Shown here in pieces: positions 1 through 6,917 of a stretch of DNA of 64,000 bases. The translations under genes and the position numbers were made by a program. The notes under the pieces are model-generated. The model saw nothing but the letters and a program-made list of their open reading frames with translations, did no database searches and was not told the DNA's origin. Each line of letters starts with the position of its first letter. The first letter of the stretch is position 1. Origin of the DNA: Bacteroidales bacterium (lineage in GTDB: Bacteria > Bacteroidota > Bacteroidia > Bacteroidales > UBA4417); assembly GCA_035403165.1 (NCBI GenBank), contig DAONEP010000007.1:542-64541 (forward strand), read 5' to 3'.

Positions 1-98
1 TTACTATATTTTTAGTCTCTGTGACCATTTCTGCCCAAAACAAGATCTGTTTCAGCAGTTATAATGGATCCGGTAACCGGAAACCATGCATATGGTGA
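1..98 (+). CDS. 3' end of small signal-peptide-like ORF (module copy 1; 5' end outside window)
   Basis: Frame 3 reads ..LVSVTISAQNKICFSSYNGSGNRKPCIW*. It is homologous to the complete sORFs at 1574-1699 and 4049-4171. Confidence 0.3.
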   Translation, partial: TIFLVSVTISAQNKICFSSYNGSGNRKPCIW

Positions 99-223
99 TA
101 TAAGTACAAATACTTTTAAGCAGGATTATTCTCAATGGCGCAAGGCGGCAAATTTGAACAGGGTTTTATGGCAGGCGGATTCTCGTCATTATCAGGCTCT
201 GCGACCGCAGGAATTGATAATTA
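31..223 (+). repeat. Copy 1 of ~190-bp module (sORF 3' part + conserved toxin-ORF start)
   Basis: Blocks gcccaaaacaagatctgtttcagcagttat and atggc(g/a)caaggcggcaaatttgaacagggttttatggcag recur at 1629-1818 and 4101-4268. Confidence 0.85.
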
Positions 224-866
224 TGCAGCCGAAGTTGTCATTGGCACTGTTGCAGGCGGCACAGCCGCAGAAATCGGGGGCGGCAAATTTGCCAATGGGG
301 CTGTAACGGGGGCCTTTACAGTGATGTATAATCATTTAATGCATGATGCTTTTCTGAAACTTTCGATTAAAAATTTGGAAGAATATAAACAGATAGAAAA
401 TTATGGCAGAATGTATAATTCCAAAGCAGAAGCTGTAAAGAAAGCGGTGAATATTACATCTATGATCAAAAAGGAAACACAGATATTTTCCTTAATAGAT
501 AGTGATGGTAATAAAAGTTATTTTTTAGAAGCATTTATTAATAATGGTGAGGACAATGCCACTCCTACAAACCTTAGATGCCTAAAATCTGAGGGATATA
601 CATTGGTTGAAGAAGATCATTATTCAATCCGCGATTGTAGTGATTGTAGTTCACCTTCTTATTATACTGTTAGTAAAAATGATTTTATAGCTGCCCAAGA
701 TTACCAAGTTTCTGTTACACACCATACAATAGGATTAGGAAGTTGGACTATAGTTGGCCCAGTGTTTTTGACTTCATTTTTCTTTCCTGAAAATAGAGCT
801 GATTTTTGCAATCCTAAATATCGTACTGATTACTTTAATGCAAAATACGGAGCAAATAAACCATGA
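135..866 (+). CDS. Polymorphic-toxin-like protein: Gly-rich N-terminal region plus C-terminal domain of unknown family
   Basis: 243-aa ORF. The N-terminus carries two GGKF..G..(S/T)G.F glycine-zipper-like segments (GGKFEQGFMAGGFSSLSG, GGKFANGAVTGAFTVMYNH), as seen ahead of toxin tips in Rhs/CDI-type proteins. Its stop overlaps the next start (ATGA at 863-866). Confidence 0.55.
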   Translation: MAQGGKFEQGFMAGGFSSLSGSATAGIDNYAAEVVIGTVAGGTAAEIGGGKFANGAVTGAFTVMYNHLMHDAFLKLSIKNLEEYKQIENYGRMYNSKAEAVKKAVNITSMIKKETQIFSLIDSDGNKSYFLEAFINNGEDNATPTNLRCLKSEGYTLVEEDHYSIRDCSDCSSPSYYTVSKNDFIAAQDYQVSVTHHTIGLGSWTIVGPVFLTSFFFPENRADFCNPKYRTDYFNAKYGANKP

Positions 867-1534
867 AAAGATTCAAAATAATAGTTATTTTTTTAGTCTT
901 GTACTCAAATATTAGTTTGAGTCAGGAAAAAGTGATTGTTGAAAGTTTTGAACTGCAACAAATCTTCTCAAAATTTTTGGGCATGCCAAAATTTTCCCGA
1001 TGGAGCATTGGTCGTATAAATGCTATCAAAGTAATTACGGAAGACAATATGAACACATACAGTGTTTCCATAACCGGGATAAATCGGGATGAAGCTCTTT
1101 CAGCAGATACATATTATTATTATTTAATAGATAATACATACTTCTTTCTTCAAGAAGATGATAGAATTGAATTAAAACATTCAAAACATGATAGTCTATT
1201 ATTTAATCTATCAGCCGATGAGAAAAGGCTGTTCTTATATAAATTATTCAGAGGAGAAGGGGCAATTATTTCATTTCCGGTTTTAACATTATTTAAAGTA
1301 CATAAGAAGATACCGATTTTAAACCATCGAAAAGTAACCTATAATACATTTCATCCAATTGATCAGGTTCCGAAAAAATACTGGCCTATTTCACCACGTT
1401 TGTATTCAGATACACAGAGTATTTACGGTGGTTTTCTAGACAAACAAAACAACCCAAATGATGAATATCGAGATTTAATTAAAAAAGGAAGGTTTAAAAT
1501 TACTGTTCCTAAAACCGATAATAACAGAAAGTGA
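863..1534 (+). CDS. Exported immunity-like protein, paralog 1
   Basis: Signal peptide MKRFKIIVIFLVLYSNISLSQ. Translationally coupled to the toxin-like ORF. Shares motifs with the ORFs at 1989, 2636 and 3334 (NTYSVSI, FPVLTLFK, HPID..PKKYW). Confidence 0.6.
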   Translation: MKRFKIIVIFLVLYSNISLSQEKVIVESFELQQIFSKFLGMPKFSRWSIGRINAIKVITEDNMNTYSVSITGINRDEALSADTYYYYLIDNTYFFLQEDDRIELKHSKHDSLLFNLSADEKRLFLYKLFRGEGAIISFPVLTLFKVHKKIPILNHRKVTYNTFHPIDQVPKKYWPISPRLYSDTQSIYGGFLDKQNNPNDEYRDLIKKGRFKITVPKTDNNRK

Positions 1535-1573
1535 TAACAATATATATAACAACATAGAAAACAAAGAAAGTTT

Positions 1574-1699
1574 ATGAAAATAGAACATCTTATATTGATA
1601 GCATTGTCACCGTTACCTATTTTACACTCCGCCCAAAACAAGATCTGTTTCAGCAGTTATGATGGCTCATACAACCGAAAAACTAACCTGTTACATTAG
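1574..1699 (+). CDS. Small signal-peptide-like ORF (module copy 2, 41 aa)
   Basis: MKIEHLILIALSPLPILHSAQNKICFSSYDGSYNRKTNLLH*. The C-terminal 20 aa are conserved with the other two copies. It falls below the ORF-track size cutoff. Confidence 0.3.
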   Translation: MKIEHLILIALSPLPILHSAQNKICFSSYDGSYNRKTNLLH

Positions 1700-1818
1700 A
1701 TTACAGCATTTTAAGAAGATCATTTTCTATGGCACAAGGCGGCAAATTTGAACAGGGTTTTATGGCAGGCGGCCCTTCATCATTATCAGGCACTCTAACC
1801 GCCGGTATTGATCAATTG
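1629..1818 (+). repeat. Copy 2 of ~190-bp module
   Basis: Direct sequence similarity to 31-223 and 4101-4268. Confidence 0.85.
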
Positions 1819-1821
1819 TAA
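1729..1821 (+). pseudogene. Truncated toxin-ORF start (30 codons)
   Basis: MAQGGKFEQGFMAGGPSSLSGTLTAGIDQL*. Near-identical to the first 30 residues of the 135-866 ORF, then a stop. Confidence 0.6.
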
Positions 1822-1988
1822 CCAGGAGAATGAATAGTAAATTCTTCTAACTATCTTTGTCCTGTCGACGTCCATCCGGCCGGATTATGCATTCATTGGA
1901 ACAATAGGTCTTTCACTGAATCTGGAAGAAAATTATAAATATTGGCAGATTTAATTTTCGGATTTAAACTAAAACTGAAATAAAAAAA

Positions 1989-2618
1989 ATGAAAAGAGTC
2001 TTCCTATTACTTATGGTCTTATTTCAGTCTAAAGTATACTCCCAACCTATTTCTATAAACGAAACTGAGATAGATATAATAATTAGTCATCTTAATTTCA
2101 TTCTTGACAAAGAGCCTATTCTTTCAAACTTAAATACATTTTTCTTTAAGATTCAGAAAGAAGAAAAGACCAACGCTTACTCGGTCGCATTTGCAGATAT
2201 GAACATGGCAGATAAAGTGCCATTGCATAATGTCAAATGTTATAAAAACGGAAACAGAGTGTTTTATTTTGAAAATGATAGCAACATAAATATTGTTCGA
2301 AAAAACACCGGTGACATTATTGATCCTCAAACGATCAAGAGCATTACAGATGCTTCATTTAATCAGAATTCAATAAACGATGGGGTCTTACATTTCCCCT
2401 TTTTGTTTCTATATAAAATCAATAACCACAGAAAGGCTAACTATAAAGTATATCATCCGATAGAAACATCACCAACCAAATACTGGATAGTACGGGGAAA
2501 TGGCAAAGAAACCAGGATACCCATTTTAGAATTTTTGGATGGGAATGGTTTACCAAATGCTGACTACCTGAATTTTCTTAATCGTAATCAAGGCTCTTTC
2601 AGGATCAGGGAAAGATAA
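1989..2618 (+). CDS. Exported immunity-like protein, paralog 2
   Basis: Signal peptide MKRVFLLLMVLFQSKVYSQ. Motifs NAYSVAF, FPFLFLYK, HPIETSPTKYW match paralog 1. Confidence 0.55.
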   Translation: MKRVFLLLMVLFQSKVYSQPISINETEIDIIISHLNFILDKEPILSNLNTFFFKIQKEEKTNAYSVAFADMNMADKVPLHNVKCYKNGNRVFYFENDSNINIVRKNTGDIIDPQTIKSITDASFNQNSINDGVLHFPFLFLYKINNHRKANYKVYHPIETSPTKYWIVRGNGKETRIPILEFLDGNGLPNADYLNFLNRNQGSFRIRER

Positions 2619-2635
2619 ATCTAATACCTCAAAGC

Positions 2636-3187
2636 ATGAAAAGACTGATCATTGTTTTCGCAATTCAGATATCATCAGTATTGACATATGGACAATCACT
2701 GCTGCCGCTTTCATATATCAGCAACAAAGCAGAACTCTATTGCCAGGATCTCAGTCTTCAGGTGGATAACAACGCAGATCTAATGTGTAGAAAAGTATTA
2801 TATGTATCACTGTATGACTTTAAGAATGACACTTTTGCTATTTCTTTAGCAGCTATCTATAACCATCTCAGTCTTGATGTAAATAAAGCTGACTATTATT
2901 TTGAGTTTAATAATAAATGCATTGTTTTCAATTTCATTAATTGTGATGCAAAAAAAATCATGAGTAAAAGTGATTTTAAAAAACTAACCGCTATTCAAAG
3001 GACAAAAAGGAGAATTATTGAAAGCCATCTGCTTCCGGAAAACATTATCGCCGGTGGTGTTATTATACCGAGGATAATACTGATAAGTAAAAACCAGGCA
3101 CATGAATTAAGCCAGGAAACATATATTGATGTGGCTACCCTACCCGAGCAATTCATGATGTTTAGGATTAACGATACTCTTCACTAA
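2636..3187 (+). CDS. Exported immunity-like protein, divergent paralog 3
   Basis: Signal peptide MKRLIIVFAIQISSVLTYGQ. Weaker family resemblance (DTFAISLAAIYN, YYFEF). Confidence 0.45.
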   Translation: MKRLIIVFAIQISSVLTYGQSLLPLSYISNKAELYCQDLSLQVDNNADLMCRKVLYVSLYDFKNDTFAISLAAIYNHLSLDVNKADYYFEFNNKCIVFNFINCDAKKIMSKSDFKKLTAIQRTKRRIIESHLLPENIIAGGVIIPRIILISKNQAHELSQETYIDVATLPEQFMMFRINDTLH

Positions 3188-3333
3188 TCTTTTGAAGTGG
3201 ATACCTATGAATAATAATTTAGCATTCCGACAATCATTTGTACCATTGAATACAACAATGTTTGATAAATCAGATTATTTAAATAATTACAACTCTAGAC
3301 ATTATTCAAGACAGCGACGATAGAATCCATTCT

Positions 3334-3969
3334 ATGAAAAAAGTAATTCTGATCATCCTCGTTTTAATCTCAAATATTTGTCTCTGTCAGTCTGGTGACG
3401 GTTTGAGACTACTAAATACAATGATAGACAAATATTCGTATCTTAACGAAATAAGTTATGATCACCAAAGCAATGACCCCTGTGGATATATCAATAAATT
3501 CTCAAATATTGATAATCAAAGAATTAATGTTTCAATCTCTTCAGTAGTGTATTATGATGAAGTAATAGGAAATTACAATTCAGCTTATTTCTATCATGAC
3601 AAAATTTATTACTTACAATATAAAGACAACGATAGTTTGTTTTGTGGTGTTAACCTGAAACTTCTTGGTTCATCAAATAAATCTTATACAGATTCAATTT
3701 CAAGGGCGTTTTTGAGTGATTCAAAGACGGGTTGTGTTTATATTGTTTATTCTCCGTTTCTGACACTTTTTGAAATAAGTAAGAGTCGTAATTTTTACAA
3801 AATCTATTATGTCATTTATTACCCCGAGATTAGTTGTCCGGCTGTCCATCGAATAAAACGAAACTATGACCCGGCAGGAAAAAAATTTATTTGTAGGCCT
3901 GAAAATTTAAATAGCCGATTTAAAAGACTGATAGGAAAGAAGAAGCGATTTCAATATTTGAGACCATGA
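3334..3969 (+). CDS. Exported immunity-like protein, paralog 4
   Basis: Signal peptide MKKVILIILVLISNICLCQ. Motifs INVSISS, SPFLTLFEISK, YYPEISCP parallel paralogs 1 and 2. Confidence 0.55.
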   Translation: MKKVILIILVLISNICLCQSGDGLRLLNTMIDKYSYLNEISYDHQSNDPCGYINKFSNIDNQRINVSISSVVYYDEVIGNYNSAYFYHDKIYYLQYKDNDSLFCGVNLKLLGSSNKSYTDSISRAFLSDSKTGCVYIVYSPFLTLFEISKSRNFYKIYYVIYYPEISCPAVHRIKRNYDPAGKKFICRPENLNSRFKRLIGKKKRFQYLRP

Positions 3970-4048
3970 GTCATTTTTTCTATTCTCAAAATTCAGACTG
4001 AAGGATATAATAATAATTCATACTACATCAAAAATAAATCAAATTAAG

Positions 4049-4171
4049 ATGAATAAACGCTACTTTGGAATGATACTCTTTTTATTCTCATTCAACCTCT
4101 CCGCCCAAAACAAAATCTGTTTCAGCAGTTATGATGGCTCCGGTAACCGGAAAACTTACCTGTTAGATTAG
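4049..4171 (+). CDS. Small signal-peptide-like ORF (module copy 3, 40 aa)
   Basis: MNKRYFGMILFLFSFNLSAQNKICFSSYDGSGNRKTYLLD*. It falls below the ORF-track size cutoff. Confidence 0.3.
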   Translation: MNKRYFGMILFLFSFNLSAQNKICFSSYDGSGNRKTYLLD

Positions 4172-4268
4172 AAGTACAGCATTTTTAAGAGGATCATTTT
4201 CAATGGCACAAGGCGGCAAATTTGAACAGGGTTTTATGGCAGATGGATTCTCTTCATTATCAGGCTCT
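4101..4268 (+). repeat. Copy 3 of ~190-bp module
   Basis: Direct sequence similarity to 31-223 and 1629-1818. Confidence 0.85.
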
Positions 4269-4274
4269 ATATAA
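4203..4274 (+). pseudogene. Truncated toxin-ORF start (23 codons)
   Basis: MAQGGKFEQGFMADGFSSLSGSI*, followed by normal-GC DNA. Confidence 0.6.
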
Positions 4275-4817
4275 TAACGCTTGAATTACAATACATTAAA
4301 CCAGTTTTCACATTTCCCTGCAGCCGTGTTTTGCTTTCCGGCAGATTATCCCGGAAAATCTTTCCAAAAATTCAGTAAAAGGAAATTACCTTTTTATAAA
4401 AGCCTGATAAACAGGTAAAGGAAATGGTAATCCGGCTTATATTCAAAAGAACCAGCTGCCATAAAAAAACATGTTTGCTACTTTAAAATATCCTGTACTG
4501 GGATTTATAAGGATCCGGCTGCTGATCAGGCGCGAATGCAAAAAATGGCTCGTTGAACTGATTGGCTCCGACCTTCAGATCGAGGTTTACGAAGACGACT
4601 TTGTCCTTGACCGTCAATGACAAGGAATTGCTCTTTCGTAAGTCTCTAAAAAATCCTGATGGCGCCTTAAAACAGCGCCGGGGGAAGATTATGTTTAAGA
4701 TGAAATGCCGGAAACCCGGATTTCAGGAATATCACAGTTTATTTCACCGGAAAGAACTATCGCTCTCCCTGAGCAAAGTCTTTCTCCCGTATAGCTGCAT
4801 TGTCGCTCCCTCGTCTG

Positions 4818-6611
4818 CTACATCCTCTCCGGAACGTCAATTCCGAGCATCCACATCGCATTCCTGATAACATTGCCTGTTAAGTTGCATAATCCAAGGC
4901 GGAAATTGCGGGCCGGCGCGTTCTCTTCTTTTAAAATGGTAATATCGTGGTAAAAACGATTATATGCACCGGCCAGTTCATACACATAATTGGCAATAAC
5001 GGCAGGGCTGTGCATGTCGGCAGCCTGTGAAACCGTTGCCGGAAAATCGTGCAAAAGCCTCAGTGCTTCCTTTTCCTGCGGCAAAATTTCCGCACTCATT
5101 TCGAAACTGCCCCGGCTTTCCGGGTCAATGCCCAGCTTGACGGCATTACGCAATACCGATTGAATCCGGGCGTAAGTATATTGTACGAAAGGCCCTGTGT
5201 TTCCATTAAAATCGACCGATTCTTCAGGATTAAAAAGCATGTTCTTTTTCGGGTCGACTTTCAGGATGAAATATTTCAAGGCACCCAGCCCGATCGTCCG
5301 GTAAAGTTTTTCAGCTTCTTCGCCTTCGAAGGATTCCAGTTTGCCAAGTTCCCGGGCCATCCGTTCCGCCGTTTCGAACATCTCTTCCATCAGGTCGTCG
5401 GCATCTACCACCGTCCCTTCGCGCGATTTCATTTTACCATGCGGAAGTTCCACCATACCGTACGAAAGGTGGTATATTATATCGGCCCATTCACAGCCCA
5501 GGTGTTTCAGCACCAGCTTCAGCACATTGAAATGATACTCCTGTTCATTCCCGACCACGTAAATGAGTTGGGAAGGTTTATATTCCTCAAAACGCTGCTG
5601 GGCGGTTCCCATATCCTGCGTCATATAGACCGAAGTCCCGTCGCTTCGCAACAGCAGTTTCTCATCAAGCCCGTCGTTGGTCAGGTCAATCCACACCGAA
5701 TTATCATCCCGCTTTGCGAATACGCCTTTAACGACGCCTTCATTTACCAGTGATTTACCAAGAAGATATGTCTGCGATTCGTAATAGGTTTTATCGAATT
5801 CGATGCCAAGTGTTTTATAGGTAGCATCAAACCCTTCATATACCCAACGGTTCATCATTTCCCACAGCCGGATGGTTTCCGCATCGTGCGATTCCCATTT
5901 CCGCAACATCTCCTGCGCTTCGAGAATCAGCGGGGCCGTTCTGGCAGCTTCTTCGGGCGAGCAGCCGCCGGCAACCATCCCGGCAATTTCGGCTTTATAA
6001 TGCTTGTCAAAAACAACATAGTATTTGCCGACAAGGTGATCGCCTTTCATCCCCGATGATCCGGGAGTTTCGCCATTCCCCCACTTCTTCCATGCCAGCA
6101 TGCTTTTACAGATATGAATGCCCCGGTCATTAACCAGGTTGACGCGAACGACCGGCTTACCCGATGCCTTAAGAATCCTTGAGAGCGAAAAGCCCAGCAG
6201 GTTGTTCCTGATGTGGCCGAGATGTAATGGTTTATTGGTGTTGGGCGATGAAAATTCAACGACAACAGGCCGGCCGCCTGTTACTTCCGAAAATCCAAAA
6301 TCGGTCCGATCCCCGTTTTCATTCAGAAAATGCATCCAGTAACCTGCCTGAAGCGAAAGATTTAAAAAGCCTTTGATAACATTATACGAAGCTACTTCGG
6401 GCATATTGGCAACCAGATAATCTCCTATTTCGGTCGCCGTGGCTTCCGGCGACTTTCGTGAAACGCGGGTAAACTGGAATACGACGAGCGTAAAGTCGCC
6501 TTCAAATTCCCGGCGTGTCTTTTGCAACTGCACCGACGATGTTTCCGCCCTGGAGCCATAAAGTTTTTCAATGGCATCAATAACTTTATTTACAAGAATC
6601 GCTTCTATCAT
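4818..6611 (-). CDS. argS: Arginine--tRNA ligase
   Basis: HIGH-type motif PLHLGHIRNN and a typical ArgRS C-terminal ending (..VPERM). The start is trimmed to Met92 of the track ORF (MIEAILVNK; cat at 6609-6611). Confidence 0.9.
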   Translation of the reverse strand: MIEAILVNKVIDAIEKLYGSRAETSSVQLQKTRREFEGDFTLVVFQFTRVSRKSPEATATEIGDYLVANMPEVASYNVIKGFLNLSLQAGYWMHFLNENGDRTDFGFSEVTGGRPVVVEFSSPNTNKPLHLGHIRNNLLGFSLSRILKASGKPVVRVNLVNDRGIHICKSMLAWKKWGNGETPGSSGMKGDHLVGKYYVVFDKHYKAEIAGMVAGGCSPEEAARTAPLILEAQEMLRKWESHDAETIRLWEMMNRWVYEGFDATYKTLGIEFDKTYYESQTYLLGKSLVNEGVVKGVFAKRDDNSVWIDLTNDGLDEKLLLRSDGTSVYMTQDMGTAQQRFEEYKPSQLIYVVGNEQEYHFNVLKLVLKHLGCEWADIIYHLSYGMVELPHGKMKSREGTVVDADDLMEEMFETAERMARELGKLESFEGEEAEKLYRTIGLGALKYFILKVDPKKNMLFNPEESVDFNGNTGPFVQYTYARIQSVLRNAVKLGIDPESRGSFEMSAEILPQEKEALRLLHDFPATVSQAADMHSPAVIANYVYELAGAYNRFYHDITILKEENAPARNFRLGLCNLTGNVIRNAMWMLGIDVPERM

Positions 6612-6917
6612 TTTCCCGATAATTTCAGTGTTGCAAAAGTACTGTTTTTGAGCGATTGATCCCGTTACTAACCTGCTTATTGGGACTGTCTTACTTTCAC
6701 ATCTTACGCTATCAGTGGCATACAGCTTGCAGCAAATCGTTATGTTGCGCAAATAAAGGATTCTGACGGCCCGACATTTCATAAGCTTCATCACTCCTGA
6801 ATTTAAGAAAACCATAAATAATTTTGCCGGCAAGTTTAAACCACTAACTTTGTCACACGAAATTTGAATTACAGCAACTATCACATCAATAAATTTAACC
6901 CGTTAAATAAAAGTTTT

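Follow-up and report, generated by a model that had tools for sequence, protein, structure and literature searches.

The stretch of DNA analysed here, called the window throughout, comprises 64,000 nucleotides (nt) from a Bacteroidales bacterium (GenBank assembly GCA_035403165.1, contig DAONEP010000007.1, positions 542 to 64,541 of the forward strand). Its left end carries an island containing one putative toxin gene, two stubs of such genes and four genes for predicted exported proteins, arranged around a module that is present in three copies. The G+C content of the island (window 1-4268) is 0.332, against 0.453 for positions 4470-64000, and the lowest value of any equal-sized stretch elsewhere in the window is 0.427. 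An earlier note, made from the sequence alone, had judged the island AT-rich by eye, and the computed values (33.2% vs 45.3% for the rest) bear this out. All island genes are carried on the plus strand; they are thus co-directional, at least two in number, and their G+C content of 33.2% is below the 41% limit of the rAID-1 arrays discussed below. Misassembly is ruled out, because the arrangement of the array is 99.93-100% identical across three independent assemblies.

The module is about 190 bp long and its three direct copies lie at about 9-223, 1600-1821 and 4079-4274. A repeat search resolved it into two three-copy families, 29-102 / 1627-1700 / 4099-4172 and 115-218 / 1709-1812 / 4183-4286, with 72-89% identity to the reference copies. 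Two 30-nt probes, one per block, occurred exactly three times each in the 64-kb window and never in 100 shuffles. Every copy ends in an ATG followed by the codons MAQGGKFEQGFMA(G/D)G..SSLSG. In copy 1 this start opens an open reading frame (ORF) of 243 codons (135-866), whose TGA overlaps the next ATG (ATGA, 863-866), whereas copies 2 and 3 run into stubs of 30 codons (1729-1821) and 23 codons (4203-4274). Repeat search and ORF calls agree in all these points with what the earlier note had described. Its limits for the module proved too narrow, although the copies are real: each starts further left, inside a mini-ORF of 40-42 codons that encodes a signal peptide and then SAQNKICFSSYDGSGNRK. 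The mini-ORF of copy 1 opens 30 nt to the left of window position 1 and has its stop at 98 (…TISAQNKICFSSYNGSGNRKPCIW*). With their mini-ORFs (1574-1699 and 4049-4171), copy 2 spans 1574-1821 and copy 3, the final element of the array, 4049-4274. No toxin or immunity remnants are detectable behind stubs 2 and 3.

Four plus-strand ORFs with signal-peptide-like starts lie between the module copies (863-1534, 1989-2618, 2636-3187 and 3334-3969), encoding proteins of 223, 209, 183 and 211 amino acids (aa), none of which has a significant Pfam or NCBIfam match. They had been taken for four paralogous exported proteins. All four do look exported, and paralogy is clear by BLAST for three of them (223 vs 209 aa, E 1e-11; 223 vs 211 aa, E 2e-5); the 183-aa protein has no BLAST match and is marginal in hhalign against the family profile (E 1.4e-3, probability 17%), and may be either a divergent family member or the product of an unrelated immunity gene. 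Genes of this family stand behind members of the same toxin family in three independent loci, namely the window and two homologous loci, L004 (three times) and L005 (twice); here and below, homologous contigs and their loci are given L numbers and proteins P numbers. The start of the 223-aa gene overlaps the stop of the toxin ORF, and its product is the presumed cognate immunity protein by position and homology. The 209-aa gene matches L004 12301-12957 (E 1e-12), and the 211-aa gene matches both L004 13748-14374 (E 5e-29), which overlaps toxin P0020, and a further, 5'-truncated paralog (E 5e-28). The latter, the fifth of the family, lies just upstream of window position 1 (L001 326-724). The sole plus-strand Bacteroidetes -7 motif (TAnnTTTG) in the island is found at 1852-1859, just after stub 2 and 137 nt 5' of the three orphan immunity-like genes that stand there as a block, and hints at a separate promoter for them. 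A sigma-70 promoter and terminator scan, whose model is not suited to Bacteroidota, performed no better than on shuffled sequences.

A database search with the 243-aa protein returned 118 matches, mostly sharing just its first ~70 residues. Short proteins with this shared N-terminus carry other C-terminal domains, among them Tae4, VanY/M15, M91 and DUF4258, and this combination of a common N-terminus with varied C-terminal domains is, at the level of sequence, the signature of polymorphic toxins. In longer matches the shared stretch comes after the end of an Rhs core (…GRFLSADP…NRYAY.NNPL..DPSGY). The 243-aa ORF is homologous to the C-terminus of full-length Rhs-type proteins of 2,199 and 2,235 aa, the toxin domain occupying residues 2087-2224 of P0136, the 2,235-aa representative. 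Homologs P0004/P0020 and P0011/P0023 belong to arrays of short genes immediately 3' of genes for proteins of 2,199 and 2,218 aa, which contain SpvB, FG-GAP, TcdB_toxin_midN, DUF6443 and RHS_repeat domains, and in the homologous loci L004-L007 the array is located downstream of their main rhs gene. The proposal of the earlier note that the island is an rhs/cdi-style orphan array with a conserved 5' segment, tips that vary or are deleted, and downstream genes left behind is well supported by these C-terminal homologs and by the arrays behind them.

The source of that segment is also visible. The linker between Rhs core end and toxin in the full-length proteins of L004, L005 and L095 is matched by both stubs and by the first 70 residues of the 243-aa ORF. 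The right half of the module is thus the 3' portion of a constant linker preceding the toxin (…FSMAQGGKFEQGF…GGGKFANGAVTGAF..MH) in the full-length SpvB/beta-propeller/RHS proteins, ~2,200 aa in size, that related Bacteroidales encode. The C-termini of these proteins are built in the order Rhs core end, hydrophobic Gly-rich stretch, linker (GGKFEQGF…GGGKFANGAVTGAF..MH) and variable toxin; in L004 the core end and the hydrophobic Gly-rich stretch are followed by HGIKGGLFSFVQGGKFEQGF…GGGKFANGAVTGSF..MLH and then by a toxin of the window family (blastp 1e-32). In copy 1 the right half and its continuation (118-344, plus strand, …AGLFSMAQGGKFEQGF…GGGKFANGAVTGAFTVMYNHLMH) match L008 305-531 with 77% identity (blastn); residues ~71-243 of the ORF form the putative toxin domain. 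The window orphans lack a DPxG motif, and PxxxxDPxGL does not mark the boundary between constant and variable parts here: full-length relatives have the core-end motif (…NNPLSMIDPTGH), and their variable part begins ~190 aa further on, after …NHLMH. Judged from these sequences, the missing PxxxxDPxGL means that the boundary is shifted in this subfamily and leaves the Rhs parentage unaffected.

The left half of the module has a different source, the first ~40 codons of a 142-aa gene with the C-terminal domain (CTD) of type IX secretion system (T9SS) cargo, which we named acc. Profile searches retrieved full-length T9SS-CTD proteins of 142-143 aa (P0121-P0123) that begin …FAQNKICFSSYDGSGNRQTRAYCAKST / …AQNKICFSSYDGSGNRQT… and carry Por_Secre_tail; full-length acc has an N-terminal signal peptide and a C-terminal sorting domain (PF18962, E 1e-8; TIGR04183, E 3e-14). 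A 16-aa stretch of these proteins, AQNKICFSSYDGSGNR, is present without change in mini-ORFs 2 and 3 and with N for D in copy 1. At the DNA level the left half of copy 1 (1-108, plus strand) matches L008 1782-1860 over window 32-108 with 81% identity (blastn). Because all three window mini-ORFs stop at 40-42 codons and lack the CTD, they are gene fragments and not T9SS substrates. The alternative that the mini-ORF is the N-terminus of the big Rhs protein was rejected, since it has no match in the large genes of L004 and L005.

The normal arrangement of both parental genes is seen in a simple locus on one complete 19.5-kb contig (L097). Its main rhs gene (2,193 aa) is preceded by a tail-fibre-like gene and followed, in this order, by a gene for a 198-aa protein with a signal peptide, acc, a gene for T9SS cargo and housekeeping genes; acc thus directly follows the rhs-immunity pair. 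In L004 a 147-aa Por_Secre_tail gene, beginning …AQTICFGYDLAGNR, stands directly upstream of rhs. The acc family, of which five members were found (including L097 9521-9949, L008 1729-2157 and L004 2125-2568), is a neighbour of the big rhs gene in either type of locus, on its downstream side in L097 and on its upstream side in L004. Its proteins of 139-147 aa begin with a signal peptide and end in the T9SS sorting domain; the ~45-aa segment between them contains two Cys and one motif resembling a YD repeat (ICFxYDxxGNR). The gene 5' of the main rhs gene is conserved as well (L097 970-2196 and L004 499-2106, 55% identity over the C-terminal 212 aa); it has recurrent IGIG…P…L.V.GD motifs that recall tail fibres and no Pfam match, and its product may be an accessory or receptor-binding partner of the Rhs system.

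On these alignments the repeated module is a chimera in which the first ~40 codons of acc are joined to the last ~80 codons of the Rhs constant linker. In copy 3, window 4103-4155 is 90.6% identical over 53 nt to acc of the locus represented by L008 and L097, and window 4189-4266 is 89.7% identical over 78 nt to the rhs linker of the same locus (blastn). Both halves match coding genes in a frame-consistent manner (E 1e-15 and 2e-25). This corrects the earlier note in its view that the constant segment is not derived from Rhs and belongs to no described family. A six-way DNA alignment places the switch from acc to linker within a 10-nt microhomology, AAAGyACAGC, so that in copy 1 the joint lies at 104-118 (plus strand). 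At the joint acc reads GCA AAA AGC ACA GCA (A K S T A) and the linker CAA AGT ACA GCT CAT GCA (Q S T A H A), and in both genes the microhomology has the same codon phase.

The same fused joint is common to the three window copies and to a second locus, L012/L013, and since all of them share it, it arose once. In L012 (7826-9859) the joint is 92.8% identical to copy 1, a frameshift interrupts the linker ORF and no toxin is left; a gene for a tetratricopeptide-repeat (TPR) lipoprotein and a truncated gene similar to that of the 211-aa protein come after the joint in this locus. L013 has a 425-aa transposase gene in place of the upstream immunity-like gene, and no insertion sequence (IS) adjoins the joint of L012. 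An immunity-family gene precedes each fused joint, in the window and in L012. Mini-ORF and toxin ORF share one frame in copy 1 and in L012 and are in different frames in copies 2 and 3. In copy 1 (window 21-137) and L012 (8597-8760) the two ORFs are split only by a TGA and a TAA (…GNRKPCIW*YKYKYF*AGLFSMAQGGKF). Because of this shared frame and the same codon phase of the parental microhomology, the original joint may have encoded an in-frame fusion of signal peptide, linker and toxin that was inactivated later.

Beyond these loci, a pattern specific for the joint was found in one other JGI metagenome contig, while 185,579 species genomes lacked it, and given such rarity the fusion is restricted to a lineage and is not a mobile repeat. 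A repeat search detected no significant inverted repeat in or around any module copy. The idea that the module is the end of an IS or of a miniature inverted-repeat transposable element, its likeness to coding sequence being incidental, was therefore rejected and has next to no probability: there are indeed IS nearby (a DUF4372 transposase in L001 and the 425-aa transposase by the joint in L013), but both module halves match coding genes in frame with the E values given above, terminal inverted repeats are lacking, all three window copies are within the array, the joint is rare elsewhere and that of L012 has no adjacent IS. Neither of the two outcomes by which the earlier note would have abandoned its reading was thus observed, as the module is not the terminus of such an element and the proteins have no housekeeping homologs.

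Several observations point to recombination at conserved cores within these sequences. L094 is 99.9% identical to L008 rightward of the AQN codons, and leftward of them it is unrelated to L008 and resembles L012; from this comparison we read the break as a natural crossover located exactly at the left (linker) core. P0121 and P0123, both full-length acc proteins, do not differ in their mature parts, yet their signal peptides are unrelated. The window modules are 74-88% identical overall, yet contain invariant blocks of 34 nt and of 18+11 nt (permutation P = 0.0006 and 0.0036), which were kept although two of the three copies are dead stubs.

We consider it very probable that in the island we see the distal portion of a locus for an Rhs-type polymorphic toxin, where orphan C-terminal toxin/immunity cassettes form an array whose joint was made by illegitimate recombination. 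A single illegitimate event would have produced the acc-linker joint, either as the new boundary between copies of a tandemly duplicated unit [linker 3' - toxin - immunity - acc 5'] or as the right end of a homology-facilitated illegitimate insertion, as put forward for Vibrio arrays (PMC5361080). With acc downstream of the immunity gene, as in L097, a single illegitimate exchange of acc with the linker gives precisely such a joint, and an immunity-family gene before every joint is what the duplication or insertion model predicts. Later homologous recombination at the two conserved cores would have spread the joint and exchanged cassettes between joints, and two of the three toxin tips would subsequently have been deleted while their immunity genes were retained. 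The signal-peptide proteins would then act as exported immunity proteins that guard against the toxins of relatives. The intact 243-aa tip, undeliverable alone, could serve as a reserve that is loaded onto the delivery protein by recombination with the linker of the main rhs gene.

A number of points weigh against this interpretation. The perfect blocks in the module copies are just 18-34 nt long and the copies only 74-88% identical, which makes them a poor RecA substrate for tip switching. The array ends in a fused joint and not in a full-length acc, which neither model of its formation predicts without an extra deletion, and in L004 acc lies upstream, not downstream, of rhs. Extension of the contig upstream, proposed by the earlier note as a way to find a large delivery gene, gave the fifth immunity paralog and no delivery gene, since the contigs do not go beyond an IS: each of the nine public ones breaks off in it 0.6-0.9 kb upstream, so that a main rhs gene is unseen in this genome, and no Rhs/SpvB gene is present in the other 60 kb of the window. 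The array may thus be a stranded remnant without a delivery partner. Toxicity and its neutralisation, finally, are functions assigned by homology.

A rival reading takes the joint for a deletion scar. In an ancestor organised like L004 (acc, rhs, immunity gene), the sequence from acc codon ~43 to the linker would have been lost in one illegitimate deletion and the Rhs body removed with it; the resulting unit of acc 5', linker 3', toxin and immunity gene would then have been amplified, and the island would be a decayed locus serving as an immunity reservoir only. The L004 homolog of acc does immediately precede the 2,199-aa rhs gene, this genome shows no delivery gene, two of the three toxins have already been deleted and an IS has struck the array. 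The closest relatives of both module halves, at about 90% nt identity, are nevertheless of the L008/L097 locus type, with acc downstream of the immunity gene, every fused joint including that of L012 is preceded by an immunity-family gene, and three joints with different cassettes would require amplification and exchange in addition. We therefore regard a deletion scar as improbable, while giving it appreciable weight.

Far less plausible is an array of orphan immunity genes of the rAID or integron type, gathered by a site-specific recombinase acting at the module, with the toxin fragments as passengers. Low G+C content, co-directional and mostly immunity-like genes and intergenic repeats are all features listed for rAID-1 (bioRxiv 10.1101/471110), and the cores are conserved beyond neutral expectation. 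The repeat, however, is made up of fragments of two recognisable genes that meet at a microhomology and is not attC-like; it contains no significant inverted repeat, no XerD-like recombinase is visible (the 5' side shows an IS4-type transposase fragment where the contigs end), and an intact toxin ORF is kept together with its linker.

The conserved cores invite a more specific idea, which we put forward as a possibility with less than even chances. The linker core (…CAAGGCGGCAAATTTGAACAGGGTTTTATGGCAG) and the acc 5' core (GCCCAAAACAARATCTGTTTCAGCAGTTAT) might be the paired left and right arms of an exchange of Rhs-tip cassettes in this Bacteroidota lineage. Such an arrangement would explain the invariant cores in dead stubs, the unrelated signal peptides in front of identical mature acc parts and the recurrence of the joint at a second locus. 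If true, this would be a two-arm system, in which any toxin-immunity cassette lying between the arms could be swapped, or concatenated head to tail via the joint.

The toxin domain itself (~71-243 of the 243-aa protein) has no significant Pfam, NCBIfam or PDB sequence-profile match, and profile searches with this domain alone found no annotated relative. The family is small: a word-index search found 15 proteins, and an exhaustive HMMER search 20 representatives among 1.84 billion, the 2,235-aa protein being one of them. Conserved residues are E114, H162, S180, D183, T195, H196, G202 and W204, and a putative motif can be written as E114, H162-x-S164, S180-x-x-D183 and H196, with H-x-S where JAB proteins have H-x-H. 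An AlphaFold2 model has a mean pLDDT of 73 and a confident core. The structure comparison that the earlier note had suggested could be carried out with this model and gave weak matches only: the best Foldseek hits in PDB by probability are JAB/MPN metalloproteases (JAMM1, AMSH, Rpn11), followed by cytidine deaminases, the top match being Pyrococcus JAMM1 (probability 0.93, target TM 0.52), and none reaches E <= 1e-3. Other toxins on the same linker (the main toxin of L097, 8294-8836, P0041 and P0064) have the canonical JAB motif, E … HTH-x6-S-x-x-D, and weak matches to Prok-JAB and DUF4329 (E about 0.01-0.02); in hhalign of the window toxin family with the canonical-JAB toxin of L097, the alignment is confined to the linker. 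As a guess of low confidence, the toxin could be a divergent JAB-like hydrolase that acts outside the cytoplasm. The sole hint of an extracytoplasmic site of action comes from the signal peptides of the immunity family.

On its left side the island runs up to a DUF4372 (IS4-type) transposase gene (PF14294, E 9e-21), of which the first part is present (L001 3-206, minus strand). It lies 583-786 nt upstream of window position 1 and truncates the fifth immunity paralog, and L001-L003 all end inside it. An IS110-family transposase gene is also found inside the orphan array of L004 (10861-11874), and the IS in L001, L013 and L004 together indicate that orphan arrays are frequent IS targets, as far as these contigs tell. 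On the right side, an AT-rich spacer (4269-4469) has no counterpart in relatives, and the conserved flank starts at 4470 with a 157-nt element (4470-4626) that is 81-83% identical in three related metagenome-assembled genomes (MAGs), in the same place 3' of argS. The element coincides with a called 49-aa ORF (4471-4620) and marks the first non-island sequence; an Rfam search of window 1-5000 gave no match. The argS gene lies at 4818-6884 (minus strand); its product ArgS is 78-81% identical to that of the nearest MAGs and identifies the organism, by similarity, as an uncultured Lentimicrobiaceae-like member of Bacteroidales. Relatives keep argS, the 157-nt element and the next gene in synteny and lack the island genes. 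From these comparisons the right end of the island is placed between 4268 and 4470.

Orphan modules and recombinational tip loading are established for Rhs and contact-dependent inhibition (CDI) systems (PMC3150448, PMC3967940). The window array resembles the rhs-CT-orphans of Salmonella Typhimurium and Dickeya dadantii, tips without a delivery part that keep a constant piece, each with its immunity gene behind it (Poole 2011, PMC3150448; Koskiniemi 2014, PMC3967940), and the use proposed is the same: the orphans would store immunity genes and supply new tips through recombination. In Salmonella, duplication and subsequent recombination placed an orphan tip on the main gene, and the homology available for tip switching is 522 bp at 95% (PMC3967940), compared with ~80-220 nt at 75-90% in the window. 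The constant piece also differs, being a linker ~190 aa past the core end and not the core upstream of PxxxxDPxGL, and the window orphans share one chimeric joint with the 5' end of a neighbouring gene instead of having independent breakpoints. The orphan linker remnants in the L005 array, by comparison, begin at differing points, which suggests independent breakpoints there, unlike the shared joint of the window. Delivery, which in Salmonella and Dickeya relies on type VI secretion (T6SS) and PAAR, is predicted to proceed in relatives of the window locus via a Sec signal peptide and an SpvB/beta-propeller/RHS protein (TcB-TcC-like), and the immunity proteins of the window, judged from their signal peptides, would be exported, unlike those of Salmonella and Dickeya.

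Strings of orphan immunity genes with occasional 3' remnants of effectors are likewise known from Vibrio cholerae T6SS clusters (Kirchberger 2017, PMC5361080). The illegitimate-displacement model proposed for these arrays (PMC5361080), in which a homologous anchor and an illegitimate joint push the old module downstream, is close to ours. The window differs in delivery system and phylum, and its illegitimate joint is readable at the nucleotide level, lies at a microhomology and is repeated. The AID/rAID-1 systems of gut Bacteroidales (Ross et al. 2019, bioRxiv 10.1101/471110) belong to the same order and are also low-GC, co-directional orphan immunity arrays with intergenic repeats; in the window, by contrast, the repeats are gene fragments, a toxin tip is kept, the toxins are Rhs-borne and not T6SS effectors, and no recombinase was found.

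The main genes of relatives are like TcdB/TcaC-type toxins (Zhang et al. 2012, PMC3482391) in consisting of a signal peptide, SpvB, an integrin-like beta-propeller, RHS and a C-terminal toxin, and standalone cassettes are listed for this class (PMC3482391). Tox-JAB-1 has been described as Bacteroidetes-only and RHS-linked, its immunity protein having a signal peptide (PMC3482391). The window toxin differs from Tox-JAB (PMC3482391) in having no Pfam match, H-x-S in place of H-x-H and a weak fold match. T9SS substrate genes near polymorphic toxins of Bacteroidetes were noted earlier (PMC7073777).

The array is of the known Rhs orphan type and thus an ordinary case of a well-described class, except that its origin is unusually legible and one natural crossover can be seen. 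The formation of orphan arrays, common as these are, is mostly inferred elsewhere; here the illegitimate joint can be read base by base, with two parental genes, a microhomology of 10 nt and the same codon phase on both sides. Together with the natural crossover in a related contig, the joint provides a concrete and testable example for models of duplication and displacement. The locus also points to a tiny candidate toxin family that lacks annotation, with 20 clusters in a set of 1.84 billion representatives, and to a family of putative exported immunity proteins, both of which belong to the SpvB/beta-propeller/RHS systems of anaerobic-digester Bacteroidales.

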